20,000 nt of DNA from an uncultured virus (IMG/VR IMGVR_UViG_3300025603_000010) (taxonomy: Duplodnaviria; Heunggongvirae; Uroviricota; Caudoviricetes). The notes beneath the pieces are model-generated. The model was given only the letters and a program-made list of their open reading frames with translations. It did no database searches and was not told the origin of the DNA. Made by a program: the position numbers and the translations under genes. The DNA is taken from the IMG/VR virus record IMGVR_UViG_3300025603_000010; one strand, given 5' to 3'. Below, in pieces: positions 3,293-20,000 of this stretch (position 1 is its first letter; each line of letters opens with the position of its first letter).

Positions 3293-3300
3293 TATTTATA
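3293..3300 (-). promoter_or_regulatory. T4-type late promoter TATAAATA overlapping the gp7 stop codon
   Basis: Exact consensus, 24 nt upstream of the fibre gene ATG; a GAGGA SD follows. Confidence 0.85.
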
Positions 3301-6300
3301 CCTTTAGTGAGTCCCAAGTTATTGGACTATCAAATGTTGTTGCACCACTAAATCCTGTGTTTATAATTTTAATATATCGGTCAAGGTCAGTTCCGTCTTC
3401 TAGAATAATTTGGTCATTCTCATCTACAGAAGTGTTGTATACAATCAAATCAAGGTCTTCTAAAGCTAAGTTGCCATTTGTCCTAATGAAGATATCTGAC
3501 GGAATACCATATCGTACTAGTGTAGTAGTATCATATATACCAAATGGTAATTCGCCCGTGTTTAATGACTCTTCTAGCGCAATAAATGTTTTCTCTAGAG
3601 ATAGTTTTCCACCAATACCAAACCCAGTATAATCTTCTAACAGAATATCATCGCCAAAGGTTCCGGTAACAGTTGTACCATCCTCTTGTTTGAATGTTCC
3701 AAGTTCTTGTCCCTCAAGAACAATTGTATCAAGGGAATTCTCATCAGAGATATTAAAGAGAGAATCACGAACAATATCTCCAATAGAATATGATTCTGGA
3801 TTAAAGCTTTCGCCCAATATTGCACCACCGCCTTGGAACCCGACAGGATTTTCAAGGATTAGATTGTCACCATCAGTCTCATCAACAAGGTTATCGTTTG
3901 CAATAGATGTAAAGCTGTTTATCGTAACACTCTGTCCAACATTAACATCTGAAGAATCTTCCAACAAGAAGTGATCGCCATTATCTGCCTGTGGATTTCC
4001 TTCTGGTGAAAGATCAACAGTACCAGTAATCAACAAACGACTACCCAATTCAGATATACCACTCTCTAATTGAATACCATCACCAGTGATACCTTCATAT
4101 GATGAAGTTGCAAGGAAGGCTAGACCATTAGAAGTATTATGATTATTAGTAACTTTTGCATTAAGATGGGTTGTAACTGTTGAACGTAAGAATATTTCAT
4201 GATCACCCTGTGGATCAGCACGACCATCAGTGACAAATTTCTCACCATCTGTTTCATCAATAATATTAAACTTTATACTTACATCTTCACCAAACATAAA
4301 CGAAATGCCATCTGTACCAACTGTCTCACGAAGAATAGCAAATCCATCCTCCAAAAGAAGATCACTTCCATCATCACCTTGAGATTGTGAAAGATGTCCA
4401 TCCTCAGTACCATTAATAACAATATTATTAGATATCTCTTCAGCACTTTCAGATATGATACGGTCCAAGTCTTCAGTAACTAGTATACCAAACTCACCAG
4501 CACCTGTACCGTGAGATATCTCAATTCCTTCAAAATCAGGAAATGCATTTTCTGGGGTTTCTAGTTCTACAAACCCTTCACCAGTTTCGTTTTCAAGAAT
4601 AAATCTATCACCATCCTCTTGAATAATAGAAGTTTCTAATAGAATTTCAAACTGATCAAATAGGATTGTACCAAGACGATATTTTATAGGTTCATCAAAT
4701 ACCGTTCTGAATGTAGAAGCAAGAATTGCACTATAGGTATTAAGATCATAATCATTTCGTGTAAGGCTTGCGCCGGAGATGCCAAGTTTCGCAGAAACGA
4801 ATGATGTGTTGATAACTTTTGAGAATACATTAAATCCAGCTGGATGAACTGCTTTTTTCAACTCATTCAGATATTGATTGCCACCAGCGTTTGTCTGAAT
4901 TTCATATGAGAATTGCTGATAATAATAAGAGTCTTGAATCCTGATAAGAGCTTCACCAATTAAATTTTCAATACCACCAAATCTACCAGATTTCTCAGTC
5001 GTAGTTCCTAGTGTAATATTTGACTTTGCAATATCTGCATGAACGATTGTCGCAGATGCTGCAGAAGTTGTTATTGCTGTTGTTCCAGCAGAGAAATCTG
5101 CACCAGCATCTTCAAATAATACTTTTTCTGTGGCATGAAGAGAGGATGCATTTGTCCCATCCAAGATTAAGTTATCAAAGGGAACATCATCCTCGTATAG
5201 AAGTATTCCATTGCCATCCCCGTTGTCATCTTGGTTTAAAACGATATTATTGTTTGGATCATCCGTTCCATTCGCATCTGTTGCATTAGGAATGATTTTT
5301 TCACCAGCGTTTGTACCACTAGCATCAGTACCATTAAGAACCAAATCATCTTCGTAGGATAGATCAGCATCAAGTACGATAAAGTAACCAGCACCATCTG
5401 AAACGATTGGGATTGGTGAACTTTCTAATATAAATTTTACCTGCCTTGGTGCAGATGAAAGTTGAGTAGTTTCATTATCAGAACCAAGGAAGTTGTTATC
5501 CTCTGTAATTATAAATCCACTATCTCCAGTACCATCTTCCAAATCAAAGTAAGATAATCTTTGTCCGCTCTCCATGATAAGATCGCCGTCACCACTCTCC
5601 AAGAGTATCATCCCAGTATTAGTTGAGAGGTCATCTATTAAAAGTCTGTCTCCATCCTCACTAACTAGATTTTCTCCATAGACAAGATTAGCATCTAAAA
5701 TAATATTTACACCAACATACTCATTAGTTGCAAGTGAGTCTTCTAGAAGCACACCCTCATTAGAAGTTCCGCCCTGAGATTCATCTTGAATAGCAATATT
5801 GTCTTCAATTGAAACTGTTAGAACTTGGGTTGTAGAATCATAAGCCCGAACTGTTCCTGTGTGTGAAGTTAATGCTGCACCCACAGCAAAAGTTCCAGTG
5901 ATGTCTTTAATGACAAAATTTCCACGGGGTTCCATAATAGGTGATTCACTATAATCAAAACCGGGGTTAGAAACATTGATAGAAGATATACGACCAATAT
6001 CCGTAGTGGTTGACAATACTTTAGCACCTGTACCATACTGACTTCTAACAGCCGCAGTTGGTAACAGTGAATACCCATCACCACCCTGAGTAACCGTAAT
6101 TTTTGTAATATCACCAGAACCAGATTCTAAGATAAATCCTTCATTGTCATAACGGTTTGTGTCTATGACTTTTAAATTTACCGCCCACTCAGACTCAACA
6201 CGATCACCAAGAACAGCCTCAGTGTTTATACCATCAGTATAAGAAGCCGCATTTCCAGACTCACCATATAGATGATCTGAACGATGATTATAGTTACCAC

Positions 6301-8089
6301 CATAGAGGGTATATGTTGAACTGTTGTATGATGATTGAGCAATAGCTGTTGTTGCAGTTGGTGAATAGAAAGTAATACCGGGATACTCTAGGAATTGATA
6401 TTGTCTCACTGCTGTTGCTGCGCTCTCAAACACCAACACCTCATTGTCCAGTAGTGTCTGTGCAGCAGACATTGTAATTGAATTTTGACTTGTAACGGAG
6501 ACGACTGTAACAGTATTACTCAAACCGATACTGTTTGATCTAACAGTCATTCCCACCAAAATTTCATCACCAGAATTTCCGTCCAAGATTACTGTTGTTG
6601 AATTAAAAGTTGCCCCGTTGGCCAAGCCGCTAGATTTTGTGATAGTAGTCTGTTCAGCAGAATAATTTGTCAAATGGATTGGATAGTAATAACCGATACC
6701 ATTGTTGTATATAACATCAGTACCATAAACTGTATATGGTTCCTCACCCTCAATTGTACCCTCTTCCAACTGAAAGTTAAACAGATCAATAAACTGATTT
6801 GTACCAGATTCCTGTACAATAATATCACCATCAGTTTCATCGATGATGTTACCATTTATAACTGTAACCTCAGCCTTAGCACTATCTACAAACCCTGCTT
6901 CAGTACTATTATCAGTAAATACAACAAGGTCACCAATCTCATAGTTGGTTCCTGCATCATCAACAACAACACCAGAAACCGAACCAGTTTCTACCTTATT
7001 AATACTAGCAGAAATATCACCACTACCAATTGCAACAGAAGTATCAAGGTCTATAATATCACTGTTACTATATAGCGTTCCGTCATTTGAAATTGTTGTA
7101 GATGAAAGTAATTGTTGAATGACAAAATTATATTTAATATCTTTTGTAGAAGATATACCGGAAATTATTTCTCCATCAACAAATGTTCCAACCACACTTG
7201 AGATTTGAAATTCAATATAAGAAACACCACCAACAACAGCAAAGGTTGTTGCACTCTCAACAAGAGCAGTTGCCAAACTAGTTCCACCTGTAATAGATTG
7301 ACCTATTAGTTCATTTGCAACAACATTACCAGAAGCAGAACAACGAATAACTGTGGGCTGATCCCAATCAGCAGCTGACGCTTTTAACATATACTGGTTT
7401 GGATAGAATATTTCTGCATCTTCATCCAGAAGGATTTTCATAAAGAGTTTAGCACCCTCCTTAGTTCCCTTCCGTCGATACAACTCACGAATATGTTTTT
7501 CTAGATTTCTCTTATCGATACCAGTTGCGGTGTTACTAGGAATTCCTTCCATAAATGATTTACGAAACTGTTCGATAAAGTCATAGATGGTATTGTCAAT
7601 GTCAGCGTAAGCCAATAACTGCTGAATATTCTGAACTGGGTTTGCACGATACCTTGTGATTGTACCAGACGCACCAGAGGTTGAACCTGTAACAGTCTCA
7701 CCAGTTTCAAACAACTGTTGGGATGAGATAAACAATCTAGGGGTATCATCCGAAAGGTCTTCAACAAGAACAGTTGCAGTAGCATAAGATATACTGCCGG
7801 TGATTGTTTCACCTTCAATAAACTTACCTGTCGATCCCGAACCTGATTCTGTAACAACCAGTGTTCCATCTTCACTTAGAAGATTTGTTGATGTTTCCAA
7901 TTCCAAAAGAATATTATCGATATTGACTTCTAGTCGCAGCTCACCCGCTTCTAGAAATTCGTAATATGATCTTAGGAAACGAGAAAATTGTGGATGGTCT
8001 TCAGCAATGAAGTCAGGAAGTTGTCCATCAATCTGGGTACTGAGTTTATTCTCTAGTTCTGGGGTCCAGTTTAAATCAAATGGTGGCAT
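3296..8089 (-). CDS. gp7: Baseplate wedge initiator gp7-like, enlarged (1597 aa)
   Basis: N-terminal QLPDFIAEDHPQFSRFLRSYYEFLE and IRELYRRKGTKEGAKLFMKIL, and later IQDSYYYQQFSYEI...LKKAVHPAGF, are typical of marine T4-like gp7. It lies directly downstream of gp6. Confidence 0.85.
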   Translation of the reverse strand: MPPFDLNWTPELENKLSTQIDGQLPDFIAEDHPQFSRFLRSYYEFLEAGELRLEVNIDNILLELETSTNLLSEDGTLVVTESGSGSTGKFIEGETITGSISYATATVLVEDLSDDTPRLFISSQQLFETGETVTGSTSGASGTITRYRANPVQNIQQLLAYADIDNTIYDFIEQFRKSFMEGIPSNTATGIDKRNLEKHIRELYRRKGTKEGAKLFMKILLDEDAEIFYPNQYMLKASAADWDQPTVIRCSASGNVVANELIGQSITGGTSLATALVESATTFAVVGGVSYIEFQISSVVGTFVDGEIISGISSTKDIKYNFVIQQLLSSTTISNDGTLYSNSDIIDLDTSVAIGSGDISASINKVETGSVSGVVVDDAGTNYEIGDLVVFTDNSTEAGFVDSAKAEVTVINGNIIDETDGDIIVQESGTNQFIDLFNFQLEEGTIEGEEPYTVYGTDVIYNNGIGYYYPIHLTNYSAEQTTITKSSGLANGATFNSTTVILDGNSGDEILVGMTVRSNSIGLSNTVTVVSVTSQNSITMSAAQTLLDNEVLVFESAATAVRQYQFLEYPGITFYSPTATTAIAQSSYNSSTYTLYGGNYNHRSDHLYGESGNAASYTDGINTEAVLGDRVESEWAVNLKVIDTNRYDNEGFILESGSGDITKITVTQGGDGYSLLPTAAVRSQYGTGAKVLSTTTDIGRISSINVSNPGFDYSESPIMEPRGNFVIKDITGTFAVGAALTSHTGTVRAYDSTTQVLTVSIEDNIAIQDESQGGTSNEGVLLEDSLATNEYVGVNIILDANLVYGENLVSEDGDRLLIDDLSTNTGMILLESGDGDLIMESGQRLSYFDLEDGTGDSGFIITEDNNFLGSDNETTQLSSAPRQVKFILESSPIPIVSDGAGYFIVLDADLSYEDDLVLNGTDASGTNAGEKIIPNATDANGTDDPNNNIVLNQDDNGDGNGILLYEDDVPFDNLILDGTNASSLHATEKVLFEDAGADFSAGTTAITTSAASATIVHADIAKSNITLGTTTEKSGRFGGIENLIGEALIRIQDSYYYQQFSYEIQTNAGGNQYLNELKKAVHPAGFNVFSKVINTSFVSAKLGISGASLTRNDYDLNTYSAILASTFRTVFDEPIKYRLGTILFDQFEILLETSIIQEDGDRFILENETGEGFVELETPENAFPDFEGIEISHGTGAGEFGILVTEDLDRIISESAEEISNNIVINGTEDGHLSQSQGDDGSDLLLEDGFAILRETVGTDGISFMFGEDVSIKFNIIDETDGEKFVTDGRADPQGDHEIFLRSTVTTHLNAKVTNNHNTSNGLAFLATSSYEGITGDGIQLESGISELGSRLLITGTVDLSPEGNPQADNGDHFLLEDSSDVNVGQSVTINSFTSIANDNLVDETDGDNLILENPVGFQGGGAILGESFNPESYSIGDIVRDSLFNISDENSLDTIVLEGQELGTFKQEDGTTVTGTFGDDILLEDYTGFGIGGKLSLEKTFIALEESLNTGELPFGIYDTTTLVRYGIPSDIFIRTNGNLALEDLDLIVYNTSVDENDQIILEDGTDLDRYIKIINTGFSGATTFDSPITWDSLKV

Positions 8090-15238: not shown

Positions 15239-15430
15239 TTAAAGATATTCATAGGTTGTTGTTACAATAGGGACAACCCCTTCCCCAATTTCTCGACCAT
15301 GCCGGTCAATAAACCTAGTCTCCGTTGTCACGACTCGGATGCGCCGAGATTTTCGACTGTCAGCTGCAACAGCTGTCATGTCGATCTCCTCAAAGTACTC
15401 AGTCGTTACTGTCTTGAATGGTTTCTTCAT
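15239..15430 (-). CDS. Small hypothetical protein (63 aa)
   Basis: Co-oriented, with a GGAG SD inside the uvsX 3' end; overlaps uvsX by 32 bp. Confidence 0.6.
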
Positions 15431-16448
15431 TCTTGCTCACTCCATATTTGAATTCGGTTTCAGCTGCAAGGTCTAACTTGTGCATGATGTCTTCCGTAAA
15501 GTAGGTTTCTGGGTCACTTAGTATTGCCTTACCAAACTGCTTAGACCCGTCAGGCAGTTCATACCGTGTAGACACCTTCTTAAACACCTCATACTTCTCT
15601 GCCAGTTCCAGCAGGCCGTAGTATCGATCCAATCCCCTGTCATAAGTCAGTCGAACGTCCACCATCTTGTTCTCTTTGGTGAGGCGGGACTTGTGGTTCT
15701 TACAATGAATGATGTTACCGATAACCTCAGTACCATCCTTCTCTTTCTTCTTGCTGAGGTAGATGATAGAACTCGCAGCATACTTCAGCCCAGAACCACC
15801 ACCCATCTCCTTGGTAGAGAACAAGCCCATACTCTCGTAAGTATGATTAGTCACCACCATCGGAACCTTTGCTCGCCCAAGTTTAAGGGTCAGAACTCTG
15901 AACGCCGCTTTGAGAACCTGAGCCCTTGTCATGTCCCGTGTCTCTTTACCATCAGCAGTATCTTCGACTTCCTTCGTGGTACTCAGCATCCCCAGAGAGT
16001 CCAGACAAAGGAACATTGGATTGCGATCACTCTCAGGTTGCGCCATGTAACTGTCAAGGACTTTGAGCGCTTGGGTGCGAAACTCCTGCACAGTTGTAAC
16101 AGGGAAGATCACCATACGCTTGGGATCAATCCCCCGGTCAACAACCATGTTCTTGGTAATCGCACTTTCACTCTCAAAATATATGACCCCCGCATTTGGA
16201 TCACTGTCAAGGAAGTTCTTCACAATACCCATAAGGAAGTATGTCTTACCTGTTGCACTCTCTCCTGCGATTGCAGTAATCTTATTGGCAGGCAACCCCC
16301 CATACAATGAGCCACTCAATAATGCATTGAAGATATATGAGCCAGTATCAATGAAACTGTCCACATCTCCTGCTTCAACTCCGTCATCCACGATAGATGC
16401 GTATTCATTACCAACTTCCTTGATAATGTCCTTTAGAAAATTATTCAT
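15399..16448 (-). CDS. uvsX: UvsX RecA-like recombinase
   Basis: [19 protein letters not shown], Walker [16 protein letters not shown], Walker B CLDSLGML, and [12 protein letters not shown]. Confidence 0.96.
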
Positions 16449-16471: not shown

Positions 16472-17191
16472 TTAATCCCAAAGATTTTGATAATATACAC
16501 CAAACAATCTAAACCCATTTTGAATTCTTTCTTCATATACCTTACGGCCATCCCAATCATATACCTTAGTATCATTAGGGCCATGGATCATTTCACTGTT
16601 TCCGTTTTCCAGTTTCATCCATTGTATATCACTTACCCCAGTTTCAAATTGATCTTCCCAATCGGTATTAACCTTACTGTCAAAGGCAAAGATCATTTCG
16701 TCCATTACCCAATTCCAACGATCAAAGAAACGATCATCAACTTCCCCATTCTTCTTATAATTCGCCAACTCTTTCTTATTAGGCTTCAAATGGTCTGGGC
16801 AATCCTTTATATCAACTTGAGGCCCGCCGTGATTAGTTTCTTTAAGTTGCTTGAGCATAGGAAGAATGATATAAGCAAGGGTGCTATCCATGCTCCATGT
16901 ATCCCACGAATCTATCTGGACGTTAACAGTCCTCTTCTTTTTACTGTCAGCCCAAGTTAGAAACTTAGACAGCACAGTGTCGTGACGATCACGATCCCAA
17001 CTGACCTTCTCGCCAACTTGTGTTTCAGGCTCTATGCTACCGTAAGCAAGCCATTCACCAAACTGATAAACCCACTCTGGTTTATCAGTTATTCCGTCTT
17101 CGCCTGGAACTTTCTTTGCCCAGAAGCAAAGTTTATCTGCCAGTTGATACGGGCCGAACCATTTTTTATACTTTCCGATAGTAACTTTCAT
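16472..17191 (-). CDS. Conserved-looking phage hypothetical protein (239 aa)
   Basis: Long ORF coupled by TGATG to the upstream gene; Trp-rich motifs DTWSMDSTLAYIILPMLKQLK, WNWVMDEMIFAF and GFRLFGVYYQNLWD. Confidence 0.85.
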   Translation of the reverse strand: MKVTIGKYKKWFGPYQLADKLCFWAKKVPGEDGITDKPEWVYQFGEWLAYGSIEPETQVGEKVSWDRDRHDTVLSKFLTWADSKKKRTVNVQIDSWDTWSMDSTLAYIILPMLKQLKETNHGGPQVDIKDCPDHLKPNKKELANYKKNGEVDDRFFDRWNWVMDEMIFAFDSKVNTDWEDQFETGVSDIQWMKLENGNSEMIHGPNDTKVYDWDGRKVYEERIQNGFRLFGVYYQNLWD

Positions 17192-17619
17192 CAGATTGCT
17201 TTCGATACCATTTCGCCATCACGAACAACATGCCTGTGAATAGTACAACCACTTGACCGAATATAAGCACGGCCCCCATCAATCATATTACCGTTATCAA
17301 ACTGCTTGTAGTCCCAACGGTCAGCACTATATTGTAGAGTACCTTCATCGTCCTCTACAAGCCCAAACTCAAAACCCTCAACTGCATCTGCATTGGTAAT
17401 CATAAGATTTCCTGTACCCTGTGATTTATACAACCCAAAATACCGATTGCCAAACTCTGGGTGAGGGGTTGCACGATAGAACACATCAGCTGAGTTTGTT
17501 CCTTGCTCAGTAGGGGTGGTGGTACAGACATACTTTACTGGCACGCCATCCTTCTCTGAATAAAGTTCACAAATCTTATCTGTATCAAACATGGGAATAT
17601 GCTTAATTGTACCACCCAT
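17191..17619 (-). CDS. Phage hypothetical protein (142 aa)
   Basis: AGGAG SD, downstream of a sigma70 promoter; motifs HPEFGNRYFGLY and IDGGRAYIR. Confidence 0.85.
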   Translation of the reverse strand: MGGTIKHIPMFDTDKICELYSEKDGVPVKYVCTTTPTEQGTNSADVFYRATPHPEFGNRYFGLYKSQGTGNLMITNADAVEGFEFGLVEDDEGTLQYSADRWDYKQFDNGNMIDGGRAYIRSSGCTIHRHVVRDGEMVSKAI

Positions 17620-17663
17620 CTCACTTCGCTCCTGTCATCATATAAAAGAATATTGTAACTATT

Positions 17664-17692
17664 ACTATATACCCTATTGTAACAAATGTCAA
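17664..17692 (-). promoter_or_regulatory. Sigma70-type early promoter TTGACA-17-TATAGT
   Basis: -35 at 17687-17692 and -10 at 17664-17669 with a 17-bp spacer; AT-rich UP-like tract upstream. Confidence 0.8.
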
Positions 17693-17803
17693 GGTATAAA
17701 ATACATATTTCAAAGATTTAATTGGGTGGCTTACAAAGAAGCAGAGGACAAACCCAATCACAAATAATATTAGTAGTGCTTCCATAGCAGTTATTACAGA
17801 TTA

Positions 17804-18154
17804 TTAGTCAGCAGCCCGACGAAACCCTTCTGGAGTATATTCCCGCTGACGGCGGATTTGATAGTTACCGGGCGGGACACGAAGCGTTTCATGTGTGTCA
17901 AATGAACGAATATGCTGAATATCAGTTGGTTCTTTAACAATAAGAAACAGTTCATACAGATCATTATCTGGAACATGATCGGGCTTGAATGCTTCAACAC
18001 GATCTGCAACCATAACATGGTTATGCCCAGTTTCGCTATGTGCGATTGTAAAGTATCCGTTTTCAGATTCCATTTTCTCTACGTTCTCAGGAATATCATC
18101 GATACGAATAATAATAAAATCACCCTGTGCAGCCATTTTAGTGAATGTTTTCAT
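17804..18154 (-). CDS. His-rich 'QGD...RQREY' family protein, partner of DUF6745-like genes (116 aa)
   Basis: Motifs AQGDFII, HSETGHNH, H...HETL and PGNYQIRRQREY; GGAG SD; own sigma70 promoter. Confidence 0.85.
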   Translation of the reverse strand: MKTFTKMAAQGDFIIIRIDDIPENVEKMESENGYFTIAHSETGHNHVMVADRVEAFKPDHVPDNDLYELFLIVKEPTDIQHIRSFDTHETLRVPPGNYQIRRQREYTPEGFRRAAD

Positions 18155-18199
18155 AGTAATCTCTCCATTTCATAGTAGTATTGAAAGTATATTTATCTT

Positions 18200-18310
18200 A
18201 TTATAACTAATAGTAACATATCTAAAGGATTTTGTCAAGGGATATTTTGAGTTGTTGTCAAATAAAGTTTCTACATCTCTATATCATCCCAGACTTGAGC
18301 CTTGACTTGA
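18200..18310. repeat. Direct repeat copy 1 (~110 bp: 3' end of a QV-repeat gene plus promoter)
   Basis: Near-identical to 19386-19495, differing by a couple of substitutions and one short divergent 8-9 nt patch. Confidence 0.95.
18210..18238 (-). promoter_or_regulatory. Sigma70-type early promoter TTGACA-17-(TGn)TACTAT
   Basis: -35 at 18233-18238 and extended -10 at 18210-18215. Confidence 0.85.
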
Positions 18311-18498
18311 CGCCAGACTTGTTCCCAGACCTGATCCCTGACTTGATCAATGACTTGATCCATGACTTGATCCATGACTTGAGCGTTGACTTGAACCCTG
18401 ACTTGAGCCCAGACTTGATCCATGACTTGATTGCTGACTTGATTCCAGACTTGAAGATAGACTTGATCCATGACTTGAGCCCTGATGGATTTCAGCAA
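18271..18498 (-). CDS. QVxx tetrapeptide-repeat protein A (75 aa, 16 units)
   Basis: TTG start with a GAGGA SD 8 nt upstream; sequence (M)LKSIRA-(QVxx)16-DIEM*; in frame with the DUF6745-like gene. Confidence 0.7.
   Translation of the reverse strand: MLKSIRAQVMDQVYLQVWNQVSNQVMDQVWAQVRVQVNAQVMDQVMDQVIDQVRDQVWEQVWRQVKAQVWDDIEM
18286..18477. repeat. 12-bp tandem array: 16 x (variable 6 nt + gacttg)
   Basis: Directly visible; one unit has gacctg at 18328-18333, a synonymous Gln codon. Confidence 0.97.
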
Positions 18499-18501
18499 TA
18501 A

Positions 18502-19362
18502 TCAAGTCCTCACTTCAAGCTGTCGGAGAAGGTCGCCGTCCAAACCATAGGTCCAAGCATTAGCATCAAGGGCAGTCTTCATTTCCGGGGGAACTGGCAA
18601 GGCAAACTCCCGCCCAGTTCCACAGCGTACTTTGAGAAACTTCTCACGGCCAATATCAGGAATAGTCACCTCAACCAATGTGCCAATCATTGGATCATCA
18701 TCACAATCAATCACAGATGCATCCAGCTTCCGAAGAATTGTAGCCCAACCGATAATTTCACATGCACATCGGCGCTGCTCAACATTTTCCCAATTAAGGG
18801 CAGTTTCAGGAGCAAGCCCTGCCTTGTTAGTAATCCATTCAGCAGGGATACGAACACCATGCCAAGCGAACACTGAATAACCATCACGATAGCAAATAGC
18901 AGGGCCATCCTCACAGTGCAGCAGATTTCGGTCATCAAACTTGATTACTTCTGGCCGATCCTGAAAGACAACCGTATCTTCATATACGTTCAACCATCCA
19001 CAATATTTGGCAAGCTCTGTGATACCATCCAGTTTTTCACAATCTTTGATTTTTAGAACATTGCGAAAATATTCATAAAACGCCAGCCAACTTGCATCAT
19101 GGCTACGATAGATCATATCAGACACGATAGTCGATGCCGACATGGAAGGGTCAAGCTCTTGAATGATTCGAACTGCATCCATAGGACTTTTAGCCTGATA
19201 AAAATTGACAGGATTCTTGATACCAGCCAAGTTATATGCTTTGCAAACTGCATCTTTTGATTTCTCAAAATCAATCGGATCAGTTGACAGCCCAATTTTT
19301 AGCCACTTATCACGATAGACATCAAATTGCGCTTCTTGTTCGGCAGTAAGTTTTTCAATCAT
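18502..19362 (-). CDS. DUF6745-like protein (286 aa)
   Basis: MIEKLTAEQEA..., HDASWLAFYEYF, ELAKYCGW, RPEVIKFDDRNLLHCEDGPAICYRDGYSVFAWHGVRIP, NVEQRRCACEIIGW and LKVRCGTGREFALPVPP are motifs I associate with DUF6745. Confidence 0.8.
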   Translation of the reverse strand: MIEKLTAEQEAQFDVYRDKWLKIGLSTDPIDFEKSKDAVCKAYNLAGIKNPVNFYQAKSPMDAVRIIQELDPSMSASTIVSDMIYRSHDASWLAFYEYFRNVLKIKDCEKLDGITELAKYCGWLNVYEDTVVFQDRPEVIKFDDRNLLHCEDGPAICYRDGYSVFAWHGVRIPAEWITNKAGLAPETALNWENVEQRRCACEIIGWATILRKLDASVIDCDDDPMIGTLVEVTIPDIGREKFLKVRCGTGREFALPVPPEMKTALDANAWTYGLDGDLLRQLEVRT

Positions 19363-19385
19363 TATATTTCACTTTCTAATTTCTG

Positions 19386-19495
19386 ATTATAACTAATAGT
19401 ATCATATCTAAAGGATTTTGTCAAGAAGAATCTGAGTTGTTGTCAAATAAAGTTTCTACATCTCTATATCATCCCAGACTTGAGCCCTGACTTGA
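19386..19495. repeat. Direct repeat copy 2 (~110 bp: 3' end of a QV-repeat gene plus promoter)
   Basis: Matches 18200-18310 at an offset of 1185-1186 bp. Confidence 0.95.
19396..19424 (-). promoter_or_regulatory. Sigma70-type early promoter TTGACA-17-(TGn)TACTAT
   Basis: -35 at 19419-19424 and -10 at 19396-19401; upstream of the DUF6745-like gene. Confidence 0.85.
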
Positions 19496-19632
19496 TCCAT
19501 GACTTGATCCCAGACTTGATCCATGACTTGAGCCCTGACTTGATCCCAGACTTGATCCATGACTTGATCCCAGACTTGATCCATGACTTGAGCCCTGACT
19601 TGATTCTTGACTTGATTGCTGACAGATTTCAT
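19456..19632 (-). CDS. QVxx tetrapeptide-repeat protein B (58 aa, 12 units), absent from the ORF track
   Basis: Hand translation: MKSVSNQVKNQVRAQVMDQVWDQVMDQVWDQVRAQVMDQVWDQVMDQVRAQVWDDIEM*. ATGA overlap with gene C. Confidence 0.75.
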   Translation of the reverse strand: MKSVSNQVKNQVRAQVMDQVWDQVMDQVWDQVRAQVMDQVWDQVMDQVRAQVWDDIEM

Positions 19633-19898
19633 TGTATATCATCCCAGACTTGATCCCTGACTTGATTGGTGACTTGTTCCCTGACTTGATTGCTGACTTG
19701 ATTCCAGACTTGATTCCAGACTTGAAGATAGACTTGAGTGTTGACTTGATCCCAGACTTGATCATTGACTTGATCCCAGACTTGATCCATGACTTGATCC
19801 CAGACTTGATTGCTGACTTGAACCCTGACTTGAGCGTTGACTTGAACCCTGACTTGAGCCCAGACTTGATCCATGACTTGATTGCTGACAGATTTCAT
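19629..19898 (-). CDS. QVxx tetrapeptide-repeat protein C (89 aa, 20 units)
   Basis: MKSVSN-(QVxx)20-DIQ*; ATGA overlaps at both ends. Confidence 0.8.
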   Translation of the reverse strand: MKSVSNQVMDQVWAQVRVQVNAQVRVQVSNQVWDQVMDQVWDQVNDQVWDQVNTQVYLQVWNQVWNQVSNQVREQVTNQVRDQVWDDIQ

Positions 19899-20000
19899 TG
19901 TATATCATCCCAGACTTGATCCCTGACTTGATTGGTGACTTGTTCCCTGACTTGATTGCTGACTTGATTCCAGACTTGATTCCAGACTTGAAGATAGACT
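19895..20000 (-). CDS. QVxx tetrapeptide-repeat protein D, 3' fragment (runs off window end)
   Basis: ...VYLQVWNQVWNQVSNQVREQVTNQVRDQVWDDIQ*, identical to the end of gene C; its TGA overlaps the ATG of gene C. Confidence 0.7.
   Translation of the reverse strand, partial: VYLQVWNQVWNQVSNQVREQVTNQVRDQVWDDIQ

Follow-up and report, generated by a model that had tools for sequence, protein, structure and literature searches.

Many phage proteins of the DUF6745 family (PF20530; phrog_31813) carry, between N-terminal helices and a Y-G-x-H-D-A motif, a tract with a period of four residues. Each unit of the tract consists of a constant polar-hydrophobic pair (Q, S, N or A followed by V, L or T) and two further residues, x1 and x2. 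For example, prophiGD102-1 gp38 of a Mycobacterium phage (QSM05137.1) carries 46 QLxx units and UOF77368.1 of Caudoviricetes sp. MW202476 carries 29 SSLx units, in both cases within the polypeptide, with x1 almost only G, W or R and x2 D, A, S or G. Here, we analyzed a stretch of 20,000 nucleotides from an uncultured Caudoviricetes virus (IMG/VR IMGVR_UViG_3300025603_000010), hereafter the window. Between positions 17804 and 20000 it encodes a DUF6745 protein that has the N-terminal helices and C-terminal core in common with the tract-bearing proteins (39-46% core identity) but is empty at the site where these hold their tract. Unlike them, it is accompanied by at least four separate repeat genes with more diverse x1 and x2, hereafter QV genes, and by the gene of a small protein with a Q-G-D motif, hereafter QGD. 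This split arrangement is real, recurrent and undescribed; no publication was found on DUF6745/PF20530, the three PHROG families searched, or hypervariable phage tetrapeptide repeats.

The pairing of DUF6745 with QGD can be seen in described phages. In MW202476, the QGD gene lies directly downstream of the DUF6745 gene, and in the cultured Microcystis phage Ma-LMM01 (gp174/gp175), as well as in its MaMV relatives, DUF6745 adjoins a QGD homologue, which in Ma-LMM01 has the motifs QGD, GH-x-H and Q-x-E-Y-T-P-x-G-F-R. A predicted structure from Ma-LMM01 is also the best viral fold match (expect value, E, of 1.6e-17). Its gp174 (29% identity) has a non-repetitive Lys/Glu-rich insert in place of the tract, and no 12-base array was found within 2.5 kb on either side. 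Separately, a frame-shifted reading of the same DNA was considered as the source of the SSLx tract of MW202476; it was rejected, the variable NGG codon lying in the same frame and hence changing the residue.

The window DUF6745 gene (18502-19362, minus strand) encodes 286 amino acids (aa), and the product scored 107.6 bits with the PF20530 profile, whose gathering cut-off is 27 (E = 6.8e-31, residues 80-277). The family assignment made in the original prediction, which had been drawn from the letters of the DNA alone, therefore holds. In a 150-sequence alignment, the nearly invariant columns of the family are all kept in the window protein (e.g., D143, H149, D160-G161, W167, G169, W176, R197, E202, G205-W206, C247-G-T-G-R251 and R285-T286). 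The AlphaFold2 (AF2) model reached a predicted local distance difference test score (pLDDT) of 91.9 and a predicted template modelling score (pTM) of 0.80. At the site where relatives hold 5 to 46 tetrad units, the insert length is 0, in agreement with the earlier remark that this copy lacks the tract. The internal QVxx-like tract that the original prediction had placed just before the HDA-W-L-x-F-Y motif of many DUF6745 proteins is indeed seen in the relatives. At E up to 0.001, the family numbers 8863 cluster representatives. Of the best 150, 97 are longer than 305 aa and 53 have 305 aa or fewer; at least five exact units are present in 41, of the types QV (13), QL (9), SV (7), AT (5), SL (3), AV (2), NL (1) and QM (1).

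The transcription order of the locus is QV-D, QV-C, QV-B, a 93-base spacer, DUF6745, QV-A, a 116-base spacer and QGD, every part lying where it had been predicted. QV-A (18271-18498; 75 aa, 16 tetrad units, tail DDIEM) has a TTG start and no ATG, while QV-B (19456-19632; 58 aa, 12 units, tail DDIEM) and QV-C (19629-19898; 89 aa, 20 units) start with ATG. Only the 3' end of QV-D (19895-20000; 34 aa seen, at least 7 units) is present, its open reading frame (ORF) running off the end of the window; all four are on the minus strand, as is the QGD gene (17804-18154; 116 aa). QV-D and QV-C, like QV-C and QV-B, are joined by an ATGA overlap of the stop of the first with the start of the second. The micro-proteins are repeat from end to end, with heads (MKSVSN or LKSIRA) and tails (DDIQ or DDIEM) that are themselves degenerate tetrads. 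Tandem Repeats Finder detected 12-base arrays under QV-A (18286-18485; 16.7 copies, score 183) and under QV-B, QV-C and QV-D (19471-19991; 43.1 copies, score 442), both far beyond chance, with a unit of constant CAAGTC followed by six variable bases. ORFs and arrays thus agree on the predicted family of at least four paralogous genes with shared heads, 12-20 units and short tails. The end of the window falls within an array, and the nearest record ends 179 bases beyond it, likewise inside QV-D; a contig of this phage type that does extend across the array (L006/L015) has five QV genes upstream of DUF6745. Both spacers hold a copy of a duplicated cassette of about 80 bases, and each copy contains a promoter-like TTGACA-17-TACTAT with an upstream TG (minus strand, 18210-18238, 5' of the QGD gene, and 19396-19424, 5' of DUF6745). 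The two promoters of the predicted order are consensus matches only, and such sites are no commoner in the region than in shuffled sequence (8 found, 8.3 expected).

By sequence, the QV tract and the internal DUF6745 tract are one module. A search with QV-C against longer proteins gave 452 matches, and PF20530 was present in 113 of the best 120. Against proteins of 48-156 aa the same query gave 44 matches: in several, the truncated N-terminus of a DUF6745-type protein leads into a QV tract, and in one a tract is followed by the DUF6745 core.

The distribution of fused and split forms was examined with a DUF6745 profile scan of viral contigs, the best 80 of 220 relatives being analyzed. These form 52 lineages at 90% core identity, two of which have only three internal units and were scored as being without a tract. 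An internal tract was the only form in 13 lineages and stand-alone QV genes in 25, 14 had neither, and none had both. Stand-alone QV genes were therefore found in 0/13 lineages with an internal tract and in 25/39 without one (Fisher p = 4e-5, uncorrected for relatedness), and a quick maximum-likelihood tree requires at least four switches between fused and split.

A reverse search, using a DNA pattern of four CAAGTC units, gave at least 134 stretches, of which 80 loci on 71 contigs were examined. At least two stand-alone QV ORFs were present on 23 contigs, 13 of which have DUF6745 within 8 kb; the tract was inside DUF6745 on 7 contigs and a single ORF was found on 15. The 26 other contigs, several of them giant-virus bins, have no QV-frame ORF of at least five units, and DUF6745 was on the locus in 1/26. 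Three of the 10 multi-QV contigs without DUF6745 on the locus were searched as whole records. The sole complete genome among the 10 (149 kb) encodes, at a distance of 38 kb from the matched array, a tract-less DUF6745 together with QGD and three QV genes, and no DUF6745 locus was found in the other two records searched (12-17% complete). As a separate observation, the giant-virus bins L097, L100, L102, L114, L119, L121, L139, L145, L148, L153 and L158 contain at least four CAAGTC units spaced 12 bases apart; a QV-frame ORF of at least five units is missing from most, and DUF6745 lies within 8 kb in none of them.

By several signs, the QV frame appears to be coding. Across 52 representative loci of relatives, counting the ORFs of up to 150 aa that are not cut by contig ends, all 49 stand-alone QV/QL ORFs share the direction of DUF6745. 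An ATG starts 47 of these 49, and a TTG starts 39 of the 45 mirror-image antisense ORFs. The four-base ATGA overlap recurs in 22 of the 26 consecutive pairs of stand-alone QV genes, and heads of the type M-K-(S/Q/E)-V, together with short tails, recur among phages whose DUF6745 proteins are only 45-65% identical. Such uniform direction, ATG starts, overlaps and kept heads and tails would be expected of coding sequence, since non-coding DNA would not preserve them. One further arrangement was considered. QV-A is in frame with DUF6745, its TTG lying three bases past the TGA stop (...LEVRT, stop, LLLKSIRAQV...), and read-through would give a C-terminal DUF6745-QV fusion. This candidate was rejected, as an in-frame tract behind the stop occurs in only 2/51 lineages, and the arrangement is probably due to chance.

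QGD is a conserved partner of DUF6745. A hidden Markov model (HMM) match to QGD was found in 72/80 DUF6745 loci and in 49/52 lineages, in line with the co-occurrence stated in the original prediction. The gene is on the DUF6745 strand in 48 of these 49 lineages and directly downstream in 12/13 fused lineages; in the window it lies 344 bases downstream of DUF6745, with QV-A intervening. The window protein matches phrog_27831 (E = 2.5e-8, residues 3-116) and has 1520 relatives. Residues invariant in a 32-sequence alignment include Q10-G11-D12, H39, E41, H44, H46, H81, H88-E89 and R102-Q-R-E-Y106, and the motifs QGD, A-H-S-E-T-G-H-x-H, T-H-E and R-Q-R-E-Y are all present in the window. The predicted QGD/RQREY gene is thus borne out by its motifs and its profile match, while the label "His-rich" fits less well a protein with only 6 His in 116 aa. 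The AF2 model is all-beta (pLDDT 81), and the C-terminal tail (108-116) is conserved, yet modelled with low confidence.

Three observations on single records concern QGD. In the siphovirus MW202476.1, the homologue at 47956-48288 (L009 3717-4049), directly downstream of the tract-bearing DUF6745 gene, is unannotated (38% identity, E = 7e-20). A metagenome protein from a single contig (P0019) consists of the N-terminal 35 or so residues of QGD running into a QV tract. Finally, a 361-aa ORF of L027 (5773-6855, on a contig shared with L143) joins the first 73 or so QGD residues to DUF6745. A clean fusion of two whole proteins was considered for this ORF and rejected in favour of a deletion in one contig; the sister contig L025 keeps the genes separate.

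The arrays change while the DNA around them stays the same. Six assemblies (the window, G001/L001 and L012-L015) have DUF6745 genes that are 100.000% identical over 861 bases and QGD-side DNA that is likewise identical over 1155 bases, and the same six differ in their sets of QV genes. Downstream of DUF6745, these encode 75 aa (window and L001), 54+58 aa (L012, L014 and L015) or 70+33+58 aa (L013). The upstream sets have two to five genes, of 89+58, 89'+61+58, 74+77+61+61+58 or 74+77+61+89'+58 aa, with QV-B identical throughout. The window QV-A is an exact recombinant of the 54-aa and 58-aa genes of the sisters, joined across a shared block. QV-C is polymorphic at 19726-19732 (QVYL/QAYG), and both alleles of this one unit were present within a single run. 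Across the assemblies, and with the caveat that these are built from short reads, unequal recombination between units rearranges the arrays at a pace well above that at which point mutations build up. Two further phages could be compared at the codon level. Between L052 and L053, the DUF6745 genes have 64 synonymous and 27 non-synonymous differences among 287 codons, and the matched QV genes have 0 synonymous and 28 non-synonymous among 128, with 22 of the 28 at x1 or x2. The codon pattern fits concerted evolution combined with diversification at these two positions.

The possible interaction of the detached and the conserved parts was modelled by co-folding DUF6745 with QV-B. A score of 0.77 was obtained (median of runs at 0.70, 0.77 and 0.78), with the best of three controls at 0.00. 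This mark is reached by 116/157 solved complexes and 2/215 mismatched pairs, counts that are only a rough guide because our own alignments were used for the co-fold. At least 50% of the contacts agree between runs, with a partner pLDDT of 81 or more. Predicted contacts involve the constant residues of QV-B most completely (Q in 11/12 units and V in 12/12), followed by x1 (9/12) and x2 (4/12), residues not named in the interface list being uncertain rather than proven non-contacting. On the DUF6745 side, the predicted interface takes in the stretch around the insertion site (residues 76-92). The model supports, but does not prove, docking of QV-B on DUF6745 in trans.

Searches for a function covered both conserved proteins. 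For DUF6745, Foldseek gave no match in the PDB, a wide fold search gave a best Z of 4.5, for residues 210-278 only, and a BFVD search yielded just four relatives, all uncharacterised, two of which bear the DUF6745 label. For QGD, no Foldseek PDB match was found at E of 0.001 or below. The window protein had no Pfam match, and 32 members searched at E up to 5 gave only scattered DUF matches. A cupin or 2-oxoglutarate oxygenase-type fold was considered for QGD, and the best hit of the wide fold search was at Z 2.9 (root-mean-square deviation 3.6, 66 aligned residues). PDB sequence profiles gave 0 matches, or matches only at E of at least 0.56, and the ESM Atlas gave nothing beyond unnamed viral clusters, or a score of 0.76. 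A NCBIfam scan of 8 ORFs revealed nothing relevant. In PADLOC, which covers defence and not phage counter-defence, no family matched QGD, DUF6745 or any complete QV protein (three searched). The original prediction had also suggested that QGD binds metal, that the system is expressed early, and that it serves in host takeover or anti-defence; all three suggestions are putative.

On balance, we lean towards reading the locus as a split, multiplied and reshuffled form of the DUF6745 module, whose micro-proteins dock in trans. The core of the module, which is widespread among phages, is the gene pair of DUF6745 and QGD, with QGD as the constant third partner; in most relatives the hypervariable tract is borne by DUF6745 itself. 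In the lineage of the window, the tract is gone from DUF6745 and is encoded by micro-genes, each a start, 12-20 tetrads and a stop, that are apparently coupled in translation. According to the model, the micro-proteins would clip back onto the tract-less DUF6745 with the constant Q and V toward the core, and x2, and partly x1, point outward in the model, so that one core could carry any of several alternative surfaces. The arrays are reshuffled by unequal recombination between their units, as seen across the short-read assemblies. Our best guess for the whole is an early-expressed role in host interaction or counter-defence, with a variable recognition surface.

The original prediction is thus partly supported as a reading and confirmed as an observation. 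For the action in trans that it proposed, the support is the co-fold with its controls. The detached units are also not simple equivalents of the internal ones, as their low Gly content at x1 (below) indicates. A bolder form of the reading, which we regard as doubtful, is combinatorial plug-in recognition. One DUF6745/QGD core would take any micro-protein via its Q-V stripe, and the library, reshuffled orders of magnitude faster than point mutation would allow, would form a binding repertoire against variable host targets such as defence proteins. If true, this would be a protein parallel to cassette-based variable receptors, with all cassettes expressed together.

Several points weigh against the docking of detached micro-proteins on one core, or against the evidence for it. 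The 80 best relatives are a sample biased to the close relatives of the window. The correlation that the original prediction had put up for testing, between the lack of an internal tract and adjacent stand-alone QV genes, is present in the counts, but only 3-4 pairs are available as independent contrasts (sign test p of at least 0.5), so the test is underpowered and the association is not established by it. No stand-alone QV gene was found within 6 kb in 14/39 tract-less lineages, although many of these contigs are fragmentary and one of the 14 lineages has arrays 11 kb away. In four public runs, the contigs end within the arrays instead of spanning them, so that these runs gave no confirmation of the structural variants, and the larger structure differences could partly be short-read misassembly. 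The contrast between synonymous and non-synonymous changes comes from one phage pair, selected for equal-length genes and a DUF6745 identity of 80-98.5%. No RNA run is among the public runs containing the stretch, and transcription and translation of the QV frame are predicted from sequence features. The docked chains are in effect the halves of a split gene, and the co-fold may have passed by likeness to fused relatives rather than through binding in trans. Moreover, the PADLOC, NCBIfam, PDB sequence, fold and Atlas searches gave no functional lead.

Unit composition is a further point of this kind, and it bears directly on the best-surviving rival. Among 786 internal and 329 detached units, internal x1 is G, W or R in 86% and internal x2 is D, A or S in 83%, while the variable positions of detached units hold R, W, S, Y, K, M, F and more. 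Gly occupies x1 in 3% of detached against 32% of internal units, and S, Y, K, M and F are added in the detached copies. This difference suggests that the detached copies may have gained a different role. The QV micro-proteins could then be real and act alone, e.g., as acidic, Trp-rich decoys or binders of host targets, with their link to DUF6745 a matter of descent and shared regulation only. The window copies are indeed net acidic (D+E 10, K+R 5-6) and have neither Gly nor Pro, and the arrays found 11 and 38 kb away from DUF6745 would suit such independence. Some relatives also have other C-terminal parts, e.g., the metagenome protein P0002, seen on a single contig, in which the QV tract is followed by a predicted membrane segment. 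However, stand-alone genes and internal tracts are mutually exclusive among the lineages, the one complete genome checked retains the full three-part locus, and the co-fold stands well above its controls with the constant residues in the predicted interface. We consider independent action unlikely, though worth keeping in mind.

Another possibility places the significance of the arrays in the DNA itself, as a selfish or structural element (a minisatellite of 12 bases, an array of protein-binding sites or a hot spot of recombination). The ORFs would then be untranslated by-products or decaying remains of a deleted tract. The hexamer is invariant even at wobble positions, with CAA in 54/55 and GTC in 55/55 window units. 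Elsewhere GTC is a minor choice, accounting for 36/362 Val codons in 12 other window genes. All six frames are open across the window arrays, so an open frame by itself is no evidence of a gene, and the absence of synonymous differences between the matched QV genes of L052 and L053 is also what constraint on DNA would give. By codon logic, no Val or Leu (CTN) codon other than GTC and CTC is barred from making a stop in the other two sense frames. The codon survey covered 38 lineages with at least eight units, 14/52 being dropped, and GTC is the main Val codon in 33/34 QV-type lineages. As an observation in its own right, GTC is a minority Val codon in phages whose tetrad Val is GTC. Against this explanation, Gln is encoded mostly by CAA in 23 and mostly by CAG in 15 of the 38 lineages, and the hexamer varies by lineage (CAAGTA, CAGGTC, CAGCTC) while the residues are kept. 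The same repeat is translated inside DUF6745 ORFs, and the stand-alone ORFs keep their direction, their ATG starts, their ATGA overlaps and their heads and tails. A purely DNA-level origin is improbable in our view, and constraint on the DNA may coexist with coding.

Least probable of all, the QV peptides would be substrates, i.e., multi-copy precursors, as in ribosomally synthesised and post-translationally modified peptides (RiPPs), that are bound and modified or cleaved by DUF6745 and/or the His/Glu-rich QGD: small, variable, repetitive peptides do lie beside two conserved proteins, the invariant His/Glu/Arg clusters of QGD look catalytic or metal-binding, and the modelled groove binding would equally be expected of an enzyme-precursor pair, but scans of 22 (Pfam) or 8 (NCBIfam) ORFs revealed no domain of a known maturase, protease or exporter, neither QGD nor DUF6745 gave a match to an enzyme fold in the fold searches, the supposed substrate is in most relatives an internal DUF6745 segment flanked by folded domains, and the peptides are repeat from the first to the last residue, with no leader/core organisation.

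The locus is informative about a very large phage and prophage family that has no solved relative. It shows that the hypervariable tract of DUF6745 is a separable module, that it can multiply into a library of micro-genes, and that it differs between assemblies with identical flanks. Docking of the micro-proteins on one core, if it takes place, would give viruses a new means of diversifying a binding surface, and would provide a natural scaffold with interchangeable short repeat inserts. The split form, unlike the fused ones, is open to simple co-expression and pull-down tests. For annotation, the locus is also a warning, as such genes of 50-90 aa, dozens per genome, are easily dismissed as repeat artefacts.

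The rest of the window identifies it as the contig end of an uncultured T4-type myovirus, with every gene on the minus strand. These genes include gp5, PAAR, gp25, gp6, a baseplate-wedge-type protein of 1597 aa (3296-8089, minus strand) that matches several very large virion-protein PHROGs, and UvsX (15399-16448, minus strand; family match). This UvsX shares 80.9% identity with its counterpart in Methylophilales phage Melnitz and 73% with the one in Pelagibacter phage HTVC008M. A tblastn search with DUF6745 against 50,697 phage records found only 11 records, neither of these two phages among them, and cultured relatives thus appear to lack the module. Between QGD and a 142-aa gene lies a strongly hydrophobic 54-aa ORF (17621-17785, minus strand) with no family match, inside which sits the best promoter-like site of the region, TTGACA-17-TATAGT (17692-17664). 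Twenty public DNA runs, labelled "salt lake metagenome", contain 84-94% of the sampled words of 16500-20000. In run X1, words in the arrays reach as much as roughly eightfold the depth of those in the unique flanks (594.9 against 76.5), as repeated words would give.

Finally, the locus can be set beside known repeat and diversification systems. The QV micro-proteins weakly match phrog_33514 and phrog_5189 (E = 3.5e-6 to 8e-4), two families of small unannotated phage proteins, and although no matched stretch passes on its own, similar micro-proteins are already present in phage catalogues. A RiPP precursor/maturase cluster is disfavoured on the grounds given above. An array of the type of clustered regularly interspaced short palindromic repeats (CRISPR) was rejected, the units here being 12 bases long and in frame, with no cas genes. 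A diversity-generating retroelement (DGR) was also rejected, as the 22 ORFs of the 20-kb window include neither a reverse transcriptase domain nor a template/variable repeat pair, and the variable positions 7-12 involve all four bases. The likeness to DGR variable proteins, and to recombination-driven contingency repeats, lies in the constant scaffold, the few hypervariable residues and a variation that outpaces background mutation. Unlike a DGR, the window varies as its paralogous genes exchange entire 12-base units and blocks, and its copies are all separate, expressed-looking genes rather than one variable site.

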